64,000 nucleotides of DNA, taken from a virus. The stretch lies in the IMG/VR virus record IMGVR_UViG_3300042482_000679; one strand, given 5' to 3'. The translations under genes were made by a program, and so were the position numbers. A model generated the notes under the pieces. It had not been told where the DNA came from and searched no databases. It saw only the letters and a program-made list of their open reading frames with translations. Below are positions 32,806-43,277 of this stretch, piece after piece. The stretch's first letter is position 1. Each line of letters begins with the position of its first letter.

Positions 32806-34485
32806 TTAAGACTCTTTTCTCAAGCTTCTGTCATAATGTTCAAATCTATCGTGCTCAGTTGGGGTTGCAAATAACAATGCCGACTTGATATTACCCTTTT
32901 TAGTTTCTTGGAAAATGTAACTCATCCAAGTTTGTTCAAAAGGACGGTCCCACTTTGTTGTTAAGAACATTTTCTCGTTTCCATATCTTGTAACAACTTG
33001 TGGCCAGTTACAATAATAAACTTCACCAATACCATAAGGTAATCCTTGATATGAATATACTGCGTCAAATTTAGTTCTTGGCGCATTAGGGTCTAATCCT
33101 TGAACAGGTAGGTTTGGTTTTTCAGGCCAAAACTTTTCTCTAACTGTTTGAGGAACATTATACCAAGACCATTGAACTCCATTGTCCCCAAAAAACTCAG
33201 AATAATTTAGTTTCAAAAAGTCTAATGAGTTTTCTCGGGTAATCTTCATAGACTTATTGTATAGGTCCTGAATATTTCTAATGAACCCATTTCTACAAAC
33301 AGTATCTTTACCATCATAGAAGAACATATCGTCTTCAAAGAACCAATAAAAATCAAAACCATTTTCTTGTGCGTGTTCAGCGATAAATTGTCTACCACCA
33401 CAGATACCTAAGTTATCTTTTTTAATGTGTTCAAACTCGTATAACTTACAAAGTTCCGAGTATTCCTCGGTAGTTGACAAGTCACTTGAATTATCTAAAA
33501 GATATTTCTTTTTAGGTTTTGTTAAGAAATTTTCATCATATAACTCCATAGACTTAATCAATGTTTTAAATTGATTAGGACTATTGAATGTAATTACATA
33601 GAGTGAGGTGTTATCATAATCTAAATCACTATAAGACTGTTTACCTGAAATATTTTTAACTTTATAGGTATCATTTTTAACATCTTCACAAAACTTAGAG
33701 ATAAGTCCGTTACCATCAATTTCGTGGTAATCAAACATATCGTTGTGTCTGTATAACATAATACTGAATAAAGATTCTTCAGTGCCCATTAAACCTCTAC
33801 CTAAAGTCTCACTTAAAACACTATAATAAAGACTATTAACGTCTGTTATCATACTTTTTAATCCACCAAACAAACCTCCTCTACAAACAAGTTTTACATC
33901 TTGTCCTGCGTAATCATTAATCGTTGGGTATTTGAATCCGTGAATTTCATTTTCAGCGTCATATGGGAACGCCACAAACCCAAATCTTGGAAATACCTTA
34001 TCGAATTTTTCTTGAATTTTATCGTGTGTAAAATATCCAGGATGAACCGTATTTGTAATACCTGCATCAATCCAAAACAAATGTGTGGAGTCAAATTTGT
34101 CAAATATTTTTGCATCGTGCAATACAAACATTTTTGACATAACAAGAGGGTTATACATATCAAGTTTTGCTTGAGTTGATTCTGGCAGCCATCCCGATTG
34201 ACTATACCATTCAGGGTTTGTTCTTATAGACTGAATGATTTCATAAAAATCATTTTTAAACCATTCTTGAGGTCTTACAATAAATTGGGTATTTTCATTA
34301 TTTCTATTTGGTTGTGAAAATACGAATTCTTCAAGTTCTTTATCACCAAAAATAATAAAGTTAGTGTCTTGTCTTAAAAGTTCCGAGAACTTTTGTAGAT
34401 AATGGTCAAACGACCTTGACCATCCTTCAGTCAAAGAGTCACGTTTAATATTCCAAAGTCCGGTTACAAATGTAATTTTACTCAT
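32806..34485 (-). CDS. Two-domain glycosyltransferase: HtrL/YibB(WlaTC)-like plus GT-A domain
   Basis: ITFVTGLWNIKR, HLFWIDAG, GGLFGG and GTEES motifs in the N-terminal domain; NLGICGGRQ and FFEDDM in the second. Confidence 0.7.
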   Translation of the reverse strand: MSKITFVTGLWNIKRDSLTEGWSRSFDHYLQKFSELLRQDTNFIIFGDKELEEFVFSQPNRNNENTQFIVRPQEWFKNDFYEIIQSIRTNPEWYSQSGWLPESTQAKLDMYNPLVMSKMFVLHDAKIFDKFDSTHLFWIDAGITNTVHPGYFTHDKIQEKFDKVFPRFGFVAFPYDAENEIHGFKYPTINDYAGQDVKLVCRGGLFGGLKSMITDVNSLYYSVLSETLGRGLMGTEESLFSIMLYRHNDMFDYHEIDGNGLISKFCEDVKNDTYKVKNISGKQSYSDLDYDNTSLYVITFNSPNQFKTLIKSMELYDENFLTKPKKKYLLDNSSDLSTTEEYSELCKLYEFEHIKKDNLGICGGRQFIAEHAQENGFDFYWFFEDDMFFYDGKDTVCRNGFIRNIQDLYNKSMKITRENSLDFLKLNYSEFFGDNGVQWSWYNVPQTVREKFWPEKPNLPVQGLDPNAPRTKFDAVYSYQGLPYGIGEVYYCNWPQVVTRYGNEKMFLTTKWDRPFEQTWMSYIFQETKKGNIKSALLFATPTEHDRFEHYDRSLRKES

Positions 34486-35359
34486 CGATTTTATTTAATT
34501 CTTCTAAAATTTTATAGAAACTTTTGTTTTCAACAAAGTAACTGTCAGGGGTTTCTCTTGGAGCGTTATCTCTACACCACCAAGTATCAAAATGTTTTCT
34601 AACAAAATATTCTGAATGGTTGTAAAACATTAGTGTCATAAACAATTCTTCAGGAAAAGGTCTTTTATCCTCTTCAATAATCTTGTCAGCGTAATTCTCA
34701 AACATAGGTACTAATGTCTCCCATAATTCTCGTTTACCACCGAACATACCACCAATAATATGAATTGTTCTATCATAATTGGTATACCATTTTGGGTCAA
34801 CTGTTTGAGACCAAAAATTTCTATCATTATCTTTACCAATCAAAAAGAATTTATCTCCTGAAAATTCTACAACATTTTTTAAAAAATCATTATTAAATAA
34901 CGATGACTCATAAAACTTTCTTGGACCGTTTTCTACCGTAAGGTATTTGTTCGGTATTAATCCGCTATGTGATAAACCAGCATCAATCCAATAATAATAA
35001 TCGTATGTTTTATCTTCGTTCCACCACCAACTAAACTTTTGATATTGTATTTCAAAACATCTATCACTTTTTTTAGCGTCTTCATAGTTTTTATACTTTT
35101 GAAGTAGTGTTTCATATCTTGTGGTTCTTAAGTTAGACAACTCAAATTTTAATTTATCTTCAGATATACCATTTTCAACATAAAAGAAATTTTTTAATCT
35201 ATCAATTTCTCTTGTTGAGGTATAACACACAAAATCAGCATCGGTCATTTTTAATAGTGAGAGAAGTGAATTTAAGTAATGACCAAATCTTGATGGTCTA
35301 CCGCCTAACTCAGTCCCATATAGGTCACCGTAAATACAGGTTATAAATTTAACTGACAT
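34478..35359 (-). CDS. HtrL/YibB-like glycosyltransferase
   Basis: YYWIDAGLSH, IGGMFGG and EE..MT motifs; paralogous to the N-terminal domain of the neighbouring gene. Confidence 0.65.
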   Translation of the reverse strand: MSVKFITCIYGDLYGTELGGRPSRFGHYLNSLLSLLKMTDADFVCYTSTREIDRLKNFFYVENGISEDKLKFELSNLRTTRYETLLQKYKNYEDAKKSDRCFEIQYQKFSWWWNEDKTYDYYYWIDAGLSHSGLIPNKYLTVENGPRKFYESSLFNNDFLKNVVEFSGDKFFLIGKDNDRNFWSQTVDPKWYTNYDRTIHIIGGMFGGKRELWETLVPMFENYADKIIEEDKRPFPEELFMTLMFYNHSEYFVRKHFDTWWCRDNAPRETPDSYFVENKSFYKILEELNKIDE

Positions 35360-41260: not shown

Positions 41261-41291
41261 ATTCTAATAAATAGTTGAATCCAAATAAGAT

Positions 41292-43277
41292 TTATAAAAT
41301 GTCATAAGATAAATCGTTATTTGGTAATAATGTATAATTCAGGTCATTATTCGGAAGTAATACGAAACCTAAATCGTTATCAGGTATTGATATGTAATAG
41401 AAGTCATTTGCCGGTATAACAATAGTACAATCAATACAATCAGTATCTAATAAATCATACTTATTTTTTAGTAACCTAAAATTGTGTCTAATTTGTGACG
41501 CATCCAAAGGTTCGGTATACATTCTAAACGCACTGATATCACCAATGAAACTACCACCAAAAATCTCTTCTAAATGTATTTCAGTTGTTAAACCTGAATA
41601 GATTGTGTGTTCCAAATCATAATCAGTCAAACACTCAGGGTCTTGTTGATATGTAATTGCCGACAATGTCGGAGCACATCCACCCGAAAAAGTTAAGTTG
41701 TCTTTTAATCCTTGAGTTCCCCCACCTAATGAAATGTTGTATGGAACCCCAATTTGTTTTTCTTTATATGTGTTTAATGGTCGAGCAACAATTTCTTCAA
41801 AATCATCGATAATCATAAATTGTTTACCGTTAACATAAACATAAAGTTTACCTAACCTGTATTTTCTTTGTTGAATCCAATAATCGTTAATTTCAACAAC
41901 ATCCGTTGTTGCGGGAACGTCTTTAGGGTTGTGTGTAATTGGGGGTTCAATTAGGGAGACGCTATTGTTTGCTGTGGTTGCGGTATAAATCTCAGTGACC
42001 AATTGTCCTAATCCACCAAGAGAATATTGGTCCTTACAATCTAACCAATCATTTCTTCTAAACACAACATCAATTTGAACCCAGTGTTCCACATTTGGAT
42101 ATGTTGTTCCTGTACATCCATCAAAAATTCCTTTTGATGAACACCACTCGATTACCGTGGTTCCTGTTACAAATGTTGTTCCTGTTTCACAAGTTCCCGT
42201 TGTAACACAAGAACCCGTTATTAGATACTCTTTAACACAGACTTTAGGGTTACCAGTATCACCGCTAAGTCTAACTGACATACCGTTTGAAACCCCGTCA
42301 TATAACGGGTCTAGTTCAGGATATTCGGCTTTAACCTCACACTGACAAGCACATCCACAACTACAGTTTTTGGATGTTCCTCCTGACATTTGATAAACGT
42401 GAATACACTGATTTGAATTTGTGTAACCTGTTTCGTGACAAAGACAAGTTTTCATACAAGTCAAACCTGATGTTACTCTTGTATATCCTGTGTCACTTTC
42501 AGGACTTCCGTCAGGATAGTGATAAAATTTATTTTCGGCTCTTGTCCCCAAATAGAAGAAGGTACCTTTGTTATTTGGGTATCTATTATTAATACCGACA
42601 CTTGTATCACCTGTCCATCTGTATTTTAATAAAAACTCAGCGGTCCAACCTTGATTAGTTCTAACAGGGAATGTATCATAATCGTATCCTTGTAATTTAA
42701 AAAACCCTTGGAAGAATCCTCCGTTAAGTGTTGCCACGGTTCCGATACGACCGCCAGCATTAGACCAACTTAAATTATAGTTATATGAGTTGTCATTCCA
42801 CAATCTGTTTGAAGGAGTTGTACTACCAGTAATTGGATGCATTTTAAATCTCCTATCGTACTTGTATCTGTTATATGTTTCGGCGGTTGTTGTGTACAGT
42901 CCTGTCGTAATGTCTATTGAAACCCCTGACATTTGTAATGTCAAACCATTGTCAATTCCTGTAAGTCCTACGTCACACAATGTTGACGCACAAACACAAA
43001 AGTTTGGGTCAATGTTTTTTGGGTTGTAATAATTTTCAGAAACTATTGTGTCATATAAAAATTCGTTTCTTAAAGGAGCAATTGTTGTTCCAGTAGAATT
43101 GAAATCAAATTTCAAAGGCATTCTATTACCATCATCTTCAGCGATTAGAAATGGTGAAAAGATAACCTCTTGGTTATAATCTTTTTCGTCAGATGCTAAA
43201 CAAAAATCAGTTACTTGGTTTACCGGTAGTAATCCAATTCTACGATAATTGTATTGATTAATATTTTGATATGCCAT
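41292..43277 (-). CDS. Cys-rich LamG/concanavalin-like virion protein
   Basis: GWTAEFLLK, HWVQIDVVF, KLYVYVNG and FIGDISAFRMYTEPLDASQIRHNF LamG-type motifs; C-terminal IPxNDLxY repeats. Confidence 0.65.
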   Translation of the reverse strand: MAYQNINQYNYRRIGLLPVNQVTDFCLASDEKDYNQEVIFSPFLIAEDDGNRMPLKFDFNSTGTTIAPLRNEFLYDTIVSENYYNPKNIDPNFCVCASTLCDVGLTGIDNGLTLQMSGVSIDITTGLYTTTAETYNRYKYDRRFKMHPITGSTTPSNRLWNDNSYNYNLSWSNAGGRIGTVATLNGGFFQGFFKLQGYDYDTFPVRTNQGWTAEFLLKYRWTGDTSVGINNRYPNNKGTFFYLGTRAENKFYHYPDGSPESDTGYTRVTSGLTCMKTCLCHETGYTNSNQCIHVYQMSGGTSKNCSCGCACQCEVKAEYPELDPLYDGVSNGMSVRLSGDTGNPKVCVKEYLITGSCVTTGTCETGTTFVTGTTVIEWCSSKGIFDGCTGTTYPNVEHWVQIDVVFRRNDWLDCKDQYSLGGLGQLVTEIYTATTANNSVSLIEPPITHNPKDVPATTDVVEINDYWIQQRKYRLGKLYVYVNGKQFMIIDDFEEIVARPLNTYKEKQIGVPYNISLGGGTQGLKDNLTFSGGCAPTLSAITYQQDPECLTDYDLEHTIYSGLTTEIHLEEIFGGSFIGDISAFRMYTEPLDASQIRHNFRLLKNKYDLLDTDCIDCTIVIPANDFYYISIPDNDLGFVLLPNNDLNYTLLPNNDLSYDIL

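Follow-up and report, generated by a model that had tools for sequence, protein, structure and literature searches.

A 64,000-nucleotide stretch of the IMG/VR virus record IMGVR_UViG_3300042482_000679 (called the window below) carries a cluster of eight genes in one orientation on the minus strand, from position 43277 down to 32806, that appears to combine a mucin-type glycosyltransferase (GT) with its protein substrates. Judged from its genes, this tailed phage would encode its own cytoplasmic protein O-glycosylation pathway acting on long (Thr-x)n tracts, a reading to which we assign a probability of roughly 0.55. The link between enzyme and substrate is well supported but circumstantial; the acceptor, the sugar donor, the order of the steps and the location in the virion are what we infer. 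The gene order is a 661-amino acid (aa) protein, three (Thr-x)n-tract proteins, a terminator-like hairpin, and GT60, GT25, HtrL-like and HtrL_YibB plus GT-A fusion transferases. An earlier note on this DNA had described the transferase genes as co-oriented and lying directly downstream of three threonine-tract genes, and the open reading frames (ORFs) and their translations bear this out. The features are as follows.

41292..43277, minus strand: P0008, 661 aa with 23 cysteines; opens the Thr/Pro block
39353..41260, minus strand: P0007, 635 aa; N-domain, 213-aa tract, 62-aa Cys module, 237-aa tract, C-module
38774..39343, minus strand: P0006, 189 aa; N-module, 49-aa Thr/Pro/Ser tract, C-module
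37415..38734, minus strand: P0005, 439 aa; three small Cys modules with tracts of 179 and 67 aa between them
37361..37386, minus strand: terminator-like hairpin, 10 pairs plus a T-run; between P0005 and GT60
36090..37337, minus strand: P0004, 415 aa; GT60 family (PF11397), a retaining GT-A transferase by family, with DSH and GEE motifs
35349..36086, minus strand: P0003, 245 aa; GT25-family glycosyltransferase (PF01755)
34478..35359, minus strand: P0002, 293 aa; weakly HtrL-like (WIDAG and GGxFGG motifs)
32806..34485, minus strand: P0001, 559 aa; N-terminal HtrL_YibB domain and a C-terminal domain with short, weak GT-A-type matches
32410..32787, minus strand: 125-aa ORF; closes the GT block and is followed by a family-B DNA polymerase (29608-32310)

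A GT60 enzyme in a tailed phage

The assignment of P0004 is secure: it is a genuine member of GT60/PF11397, with a predicted catalytic activity. The protein matches the Pfam profile PF11397 (GlcNAc, equivalent to CAZy GT60) with an E-value of 1.5e-66 and 225.7 bits, for which the curated cut-off is 21, in two stretches that reach profile position 351 of 352. The DSH and GEE motifs, reported as intact in the earlier note, are indeed so, with D92-S93-H94, E204-E205 and H229 invariant across 43 homologues that range down to 35% identity. An AlphaFold model with a mean pLDDT (predicted local distance difference test) of 95.3 has a GT-A fold and is closest to the GT27 polypeptide transferases, above every polysaccharide GT-A enzyme compared, a comparison that rests on GT27 with no solved GT60 structure as a yardstick. 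No solved relative came up in the PDB, whether it was searched with the P0004 sequence by itself or with a profile of 43 sequences. The profile and structure check of 36090..37337 against GT60, suggested at the outset, therefore came out in favor of the family call. GT60 has been placed beside GT27, both families having DxH in place of DxD and glycosylating Ser/Thr of polypeptides in the same way (PMC7185993).

In protists, GT60 enzymes initiate mucin-type glycans and are devoid of a C-terminal ricin-type lectin domain (PMC8724618); the Trypanosoma cruzi enzyme places alpha-linked N-acetylglucosamine (GlcNAc) on threonine (PMC3769586). By sequence, no ricin-type lectin domain is recognizable in P0004; residues 300-415 (about 115 aa) form a confident alpha/beta domain in the model that has no Pfam match. 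The enzyme is predicted to be soluble, with neither a signal peptide nor a hydrophobic segment, and begins at the first strand of the fold.

The family abounds in environmental phage data. Relatives of P0004 were confirmed on 548 IMG/VR stretches, the best 80 of which share 78-100% identity, and of 8,000 candidates scored, more than 7,300 clusters (90% identity) passed an E-value of 1e-5, the best 120 being at least 80% identical to P0004.

Two other contexts of this family were seen. In a 50%-identity library, three giant proteins of 1600-2500 aa (P0135, P0136 and P0138) contain three or four separate GT60-like stretches. On two GC-rich environmental contigs, L104 (genes 2510-6240) and L107 (14-3117), two PF11397 genes surround a PqqD-like and an ScmC-like gene, an arrangement that could be a glycosylation cluster for ribosomally synthesized and post-translationally modified peptides (RiPPs) using PF11397 enzymes.

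Threonine/proline-tract proteins

The candidate substrates have a regular pattern. Tracts occupy residues 61-239 and 302-368 of P0005, 67-115 of P0006, and 55-267 and 330-566 of P0007. They are of low complexity and mucin-like (Pro/Thr/Ser, PTS) in composition, with 49-237 aa, 35-46% Thr and 16-24% Pro (44-46% Thr and 16-18% Pro in the long ones). Threonine at about every second residue, as first noticed in the earlier note, turned out to be a strict period of two in P0005 and P0007: Thr-Thr pairs one or three residues apart reach 0.02-0.07 of the expected frequency, and those two or four residues apart about twice that expected. The underlying DNA consists of imperfect tandem repeats of 12-90 bp.

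All three proteins are built from small Cys-containing modules of 55-75 aa, with the tracts as joins. P0005 shares its N-module with P0006 (92% identity) and its middle module with P0007 (74% identity), and further modules reappear in Thr-rich proteins 45-70 kb distant. P0005, P0006 and P0007 are the only Thr-rich ORFs of the window, and the whole 142-kb contig has eight, two of which contain genuine Laminin_G_3 domains. Thr-rich ORFs of 185-196 aa occupy the position of P0006 in many relatives, which is a positional match only. Signal peptides and membrane segments were found neither in the enzymes nor in the Thr/Pro proteins.

P0008 had been called LamG-like, which was not confirmed: neither Pfam (E-values up to 1) nor PHROG gave a match, and the AlphaFold model, built with 23 homologues, has a pLDDT of 30.7 and an unreadable fold. 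Its BLASTP likeness to a true LamG protein (P0133) is weak (E 0.11 over 33 residues), and the Laminin_G_3 label is a feature-based (language-model) lead only. In relatives, a P0008 core of about 620 aa is fused to C-terminal Thr/Pro tracts, giving totals of 717-1786 aa. One such relative (L005, 3340-6036) is 97% identical and has 898 aa with a Thr/Pro tract at its C-end; the window protein stops at 661 aa. The C-end of P0008 has a short repeated LPNNDL-x-Y motif.

Elsewhere on the contig (5862-8330, minus strand; L085), an 822-aa protein has a short Thr/Pro tract followed by six SprB repeats (E 7.5e-24). The SprB repeat is a gliding-motility adhesin repeat of Bacteroidota, and its presence may point to a host from that group or to mimicry of an adhesin on the host surface.

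Linkage of enzyme and tracts across phages

The co-occurrence check in related phages that the earlier note had proposed supports the pairing. In 65 related IMG/VR loci the sequence extends 1.5 kb or more beyond GT60 on its upstream side; a Thr/Pro gene is linked to GT60 in 63 of them and absent from two. A Thr-rich ORF lies immediately upstream of GT60 in 42 of the 65 and within 6 kb upstream in 54; in nine it is elsewhere in the locus, in some cases relocated to just after the HtrL fusion. A close relative that is 98% complete has 141 matches to the Thr/Pro codon pattern.

Because the 80 best relatives are close kin, distant lineages were examined. Phages XacN1 and RAS14, which have different hosts, encode GT60 proteins 45-48% identical to P0004 within the same cluster of GT60, HtrL-like and HtrL-fusion genes; the XacN1 sheath is absent from the 40 best matches listed for the tail sheath of the present phage. 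The Thr/Pro codon pattern has 179 matches in XacN1 and 67 in RAS14, versus 0 and 2 for a reversed-pattern control, and none in four GT60-less phages (LR756508, Mel-JY01, Flavobacterium phage immuto and SP-15). At least 10 XacN1 ORFs have the same period-two Thr tracts, and one cluster of pattern matches falls inside the coordinates of the 3313-aa ORF325, which adjoins the baseplate genes and lies within a few kb of the GT cluster.

Fiber genes are neighbors in further lineages. The unrelated short contig L103 has a Peptidase_S74 fiber gene and a 651-aa Thr-rich ORF just upstream of a GT60 pair (5578-8099), and on the contigs of P0160 a GT60 pair adjoins large genes ending in a Gp38 tail-fiber adhesin. 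The marine contig L106 (GT60 pair at 296-2811) again combines two GT60 genes with methyltransferase, sulfotransferase and HtrL genes. The distant contigs L104, L105, L107 and L108 are too short for the tract test, and L106 is short as well, with 295 bp ahead of GT60; these five were left out. The P0160 lineage additionally has a GT29 sialyltransferase-like gene, a CMP-sugar synthetase and a 1233-aa methyltransferase-HtrL fusion.

Starting from the tracts, PF11397 is present in 17 of 38 tract-bearing viral contigs of at least 50 kb, and in four of the 11 tract-bearing genomes that are at least 90% complete. The link between GT60 and the tracts is strong, though not obligatory. Period-two threonine is kept in all lineages compared (this phage, XacN1, RAS14 and L103). 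The intervening residue is proline in 35-46% of cases (27% in L103), and the remaining ones track base composition, being N/Q/A here and V/R/I in XacN1. Selection on threonine, rather than mere low complexity, would give such a pattern of kept threonines and drifting neighbors.

Other transferases and a second sugar island

The neighboring transferase calls of the earlier note were upheld for GT25 and HtrL_YibB, as for GT60, and failed for P0002 as a family member. P0003 matches GT25 (PF01755) with an E-value of 4.1e-15 and 56.6 bits (cut-off 24). Residues 3-253 of P0001 match HtrL_YibB (PF09612) with an E-value of 7.4e-11 and 42.6 bits (cut-off 24.1); the protein falls under the NCBIfam equivalog cut-off and is thus a member of the HtrL_YibB family, not YibB itself. 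The C-terminal half of P0001 weakly resembles, over short stretches, a TET-associated glycosyltransferase (E 4.8e-4, under the cut-off) and the PHROG “beta-glucosyl-HMC-alpha-glucosyltransferase” (E 1.4e-5), and the whole protein is 39% identical to XacN1 ORF330. P0002 has zero matches in Pfam, PHROG and NCBIfam; by BLASTP it weakly resembles the HtrL domain of P0001 (E 0.002), and a 30%-identical ORF lies at the coordinates of XacN1 ORF332.

A second set of sugar genes lies further along the window:

45911..63708, plus strand: second sugar island, transferases and sugar-synthesis genes, with unrelated exonuclease, dUTPase and PhoH genes interspersed

It includes GT4-like, GT2_5+GT4 and GT2 transferases, a sulfotransferase, adenosine 5'-phosphosulfate (APS) kinase, a cytidylyltransferase and two methyltransferases. 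It also has a HAD plus nucleotidyltransferase protein, a GT10-like transferase, a DegT aminotransferase fragment, GDP-mannose 4,6-dehydratase and a GT2 transferase. In the relatives L015 and L063, genes of these kinds sit between GT60 and the HtrL fusion, an interval whose content varies among relatives and consists of sugar-modifying genes, as in surface-glycan loci. Since genes of the same kinds lie inside the GT60 cluster in relatives, the two islands are best read as one putative system of strain-variable content. Within the island, sulfotransferase, APS kinase, small HAD-like and cytidylyltransferase-like genes are tightly packed at 52116-53912 (plus strand); an ATP sulfurylase was not recognizable among the window ORFs scanned.

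Transcription signals and genomic context

The motif TATTTAT occurs 5-39 nt upstream of 11 genes in the window. It is enriched only within 45 nt upstream of gene starts (11 occurrences versus a mean of 3.8 for 7-mers of the same composition, of which it is the commonest). The 8-mer CTATTTAT is not above chance in frequency over the whole window, and a sigma-70 promoter scan gave counts at chance level. Genes bearing the motif include tail genes, sheath, adaptor, P0008 and P0007, and also a GT2 gene and others of no assigned role. The earlier view that the cluster carries this signal like the structural genes therefore holds for P0007 (7 nt) and P0008 (11 nt), and does not hold for P0006, P0005 or the four GT genes; the motif is moreover not confined to structural genes. 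P0006 and P0005 are downstream of P0007 in the same transcription unit, and in the GT block the motif precedes only the closing 125-aa ORF (7 nt). The hairpin at 37361-37386 is the best terminator-like hairpin of the region. Because it lies between the blocks and TATTTAT is absent from the four GT genes, the Thr/Pro genes and the GT genes are predicted to be separate transcription units. At the other end, the 51-bp gap 43278-43328, between P0008 and the divergent gene 43329-44120, has a CCCGGG palindrome flanked by two copies of TATTTAT, one on each strand, and looks like a bidirectional promoter.

The window corresponds to bases 31156-95155 of the IMG/VR viral contig, has a GC content of about 33%, and gave zero megablast matches for the block against GenBank phages. 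From a completeness estimate of 47%, the full genome would be about 300 kb. The first 23 kb of the window form the tail module, with the sheath gene at 17999-21199, and other genes encode an SNF2 helicase, a superoxide dismutase fusion, a head-tail adaptor and the DNA polymerase. The superoxide dismutase fusion is a 522-aa ORF (25570-27138, plus strand) in which residues 49-238 comprise complete Fe/Mn superoxide dismutase domains, whereas the long C-terminal extension matches no family. A 126-aa ORF (44904-45284, plus strand), situated between the Thr/Pro block and the sugar island, contains a WYL domain (E 5e-6), which is a ligand-sensing regulator domain.

Comparison with known systems

The nearest described system is that of XacN1, in whose virions at least two proteins stain with periodic acid-Schiff (PMC5852040, Fig. 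S4). Its authors attributed these glycoproteins, as a proposal, to the two annotated transferases of the phage, one of which is the GT60 homologue ORF334 (PMC5852040). ORF334, ORF332 and ORF330 correspond to the present GT60 (48% identity), HtrL-like (30%) and HtrL-fusion (39%) proteins, and both phages have period-two Thr/Pro-tract proteins, many of them in XacN1. XacN1 differs in host and base composition, and its cluster is beside baseplate genes and includes a carbamoyltransferase. The authors made no mention of Thr/Pro tracts or of the GT60 family (PMC5852040).

The protist GT60 enzymes, such as the T. cruzi mucin initiator, the Dictyostelium Golgi enzymes and the cytoplasmic Gnt1, share with P0004 the PF11397 family, the DxH motif and a GT-A fold nearest to GT27, and their acceptors are Thr-rich mucin-like repeats (PMC3769586, PMC8724618). 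Gnt1 and P0004 are both soluble. In contrast to the protist enzymes, P0004 comes from a tailed phage, lacks a membrane anchor and carries an extra C-terminal domain of about 115 aa, and its donor, acceptor and linkage are putative; its candidate acceptors have strict period-two threonine, whereas protist acceptors have threonine runs. Animal and apicomplexan GT27 polypeptide N-acetylgalactosamine (GalNAc)-transferases are only 10-16% identical to P0004 and belong to a different CAZy family.

O-glycosylation of virions by phage enzymes has been reported for mycobacteriophages such as Che8 (Freeman et al. 2023, as cited in PMC12619734 and PMC11256854). There too, as these citing papers describe it, phage-encoded transferases act on the phage's own proteins in the cytoplasm. 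The mycobacteriophage glycans are described at the C-termini of capsid and tail-tube proteins (PMC12619734), whereas long repeats of modular accessory proteins are proposed here, and the large sugar-synthesis island is a feature of the present phage. Giant viruses, such as the chlorovirus PBCV-1 with its glycosylated capsid (cited in PMC5852040), likewise encode sugar synthesis and transferases and use no secretory pathway; as cited there, they are viruses of eukaryotes, and both their enzyme families and their types of acceptor differ. A paper on “moraphages” (PMC12619734) describes four core glycosyltransferase groups in a Bacteroidota-linked lineage of large phages; a tie between that lineage and this phage was not found.

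The earlier statement that no such cassette had been described was too strong, because the XacN1 paper (PMC5852040) and the mycobacteriophage work exist: self-glycosylation by phages is known, and the general idea, including a role for a GT60 homologue, was present with the XacN1 authors. A literature search for GT60 in phages and for Thr/Pro-rich or mucin-like glycosylated phage proteins returned nothing on point. What seems new, within the literature searched, is a GT60-type mucin-style initiator in tailed phages paired with a family of period-two Thr/Pro-tract proteins.

Proposed pathway and alternatives

In the proposed pathway, P0004, built like the polypeptide GalNAc-transferases, would transfer the first N-acetylhexosamine (HexNAc) from a UDP-sugar to the period-two threonines of the tracts; by analogy with the family this sugar may be GlcNAc. 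The acceptors would be the paralogous proteins P0005, P0006 and P0007 and five more encoded elsewhere in the genome. Because neither the enzyme nor the Thr/Pro proteins have a signal peptide or membrane segment, they would meet in the cytoplasm, the site of virion assembly. GT25, HtrL-like and second-island enzymes could then lengthen the glycan and modify it through methylation, sulfation, or attachment of amino or deoxy sugars. Proteins decorated in this way would most likely be exposed appendages or decorations of the particle, where the glycan may stiffen and protect the long linkers and alter particle adhesion.

Several observations weigh against this pathway. Lipopolysaccharide synthesis is the best-known setting of families GT25 and HtrL, five of the contig's eight Thr-rich genes are far from the GT60 cluster, and none of the Thr/Pro proteins matched known virion protein families in Pfam or PHROG. 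The cluster adjoins the DNA polymerase, outside the tail module, and the terminator between the blocks, together with GT genes devoid of TATTTAT, leaves co-expression unsupported. Shared descent largely accounts for the synteny of the 80 close relatives, which is therefore not independent evidence. Of the 11 tract-bearing genomes with a completeness of 90% or more, seven have no PF11397; GT60 is thus not required by the tracts, which could be plain linkers. Glycosylation of these proteins is predicted from genes. For XacN1, neither text nor supplement assigns the stained bands to proteins or states whether the Thr/Pro ORFs belong to the particle proteome (PMC5852040).

An alternative, unlikely but the strongest of those considered, is that the transferases and the island act on a non-protein acceptor, such as host lipopolysaccharide, capsule or another envelope glycan, for phage exclusion or release, with the tracts as unglycosylated spacers. 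The lipopolysaccharide associations of GT25 and HtrL_YibB, the resemblance of the second island to an O-antigen or capsule locus, the complete phage genomes with tracts and no GT60, and the separate transcription units would all fit. However, characterized GT60 members are reported to transfer to polypeptides, and P0004 groups in fold with GT27, above the polysaccharide enzymes. A flippase, polymerase, undecaprenyl-phosphate transferase or membrane segment was not seen in the block (the rest of the genome was unscanned for them), and the recurrence of Thr-rich and fiber gene neighbors in unrelated lineages also argues for a protein acceptor.

Slightly less probable again is glycosylation by GT60 of proteins other than the tract family. 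These could be host proteins or, following the mycobacteriophage and chlorovirus examples, subunits of the capsid or tail. In favor of this, Dictyostelium Gnt1 modifies a single hydroxyproline of one protein, as its Pfam family description has it. The mycobacteriophage glycans on capsid and tail-tube C-termini, as described in PMC12619734, point the same way, as do the stained XacN1 bands of unassigned identity. This alternative nevertheless leaves unexplained why GT60 is repeatedly adjacent to, and co-occurs genome-wide with, period-two Thr tracts across lineages.

Glycosylation of phage DNA (hydroxymethyl-pyrimidine hypermodification that evades restriction) is very improbable, because no route to hydroxymethyl-pyrimidine was found: ThyA-family hydroxymethylase (PF00303) and ThyX (PF02511) are absent from the contig and from the 98%-complete relative in searches that detected their positive controls, and TET/JBP (PF12851) was not found in a search without a positive control. 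The position beside the DNA polymerase, the weak TET-associated and PHROG matches of P0001 and the XacN1 carbamoyltransferase would suit it, but those matches span only about 35-60 residues of the nucleotide-sugar-binding core, and GT60 is not known to include a DNA-modifying member.

Implications

Phage particles are usually taken as bare protein, and the mycobacteriophage exception is recent and narrow. As a tentative generalization, to which we give somewhat less credence than to the pathway in this phage, many tailed phages of unrelated hosts might share a self-contained mucin-type pathway in the cytoplasm, in which GT60 reads a period-two (Thr-x)n code on modular fiber or decoration proteins and extending enzymes that vary between strains add methylated or sulfated glycans, producing a virion glycocalyx. 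If so, mucin-type initiation of the GT60/GT27 style would not be confined to eukaryotes. If GT60 glycosylates long Thr/Pro tracts, many abundant lake phages would be sugar-coated, and such a coat would influence adsorption, adhesion to particles and resistance to proteases, as well as how grazers or immune systems recognize the phage. In that case there would also be a soluble, easily expressed enzyme for mucin-type initiation, with XacN1 as a cultured test system.

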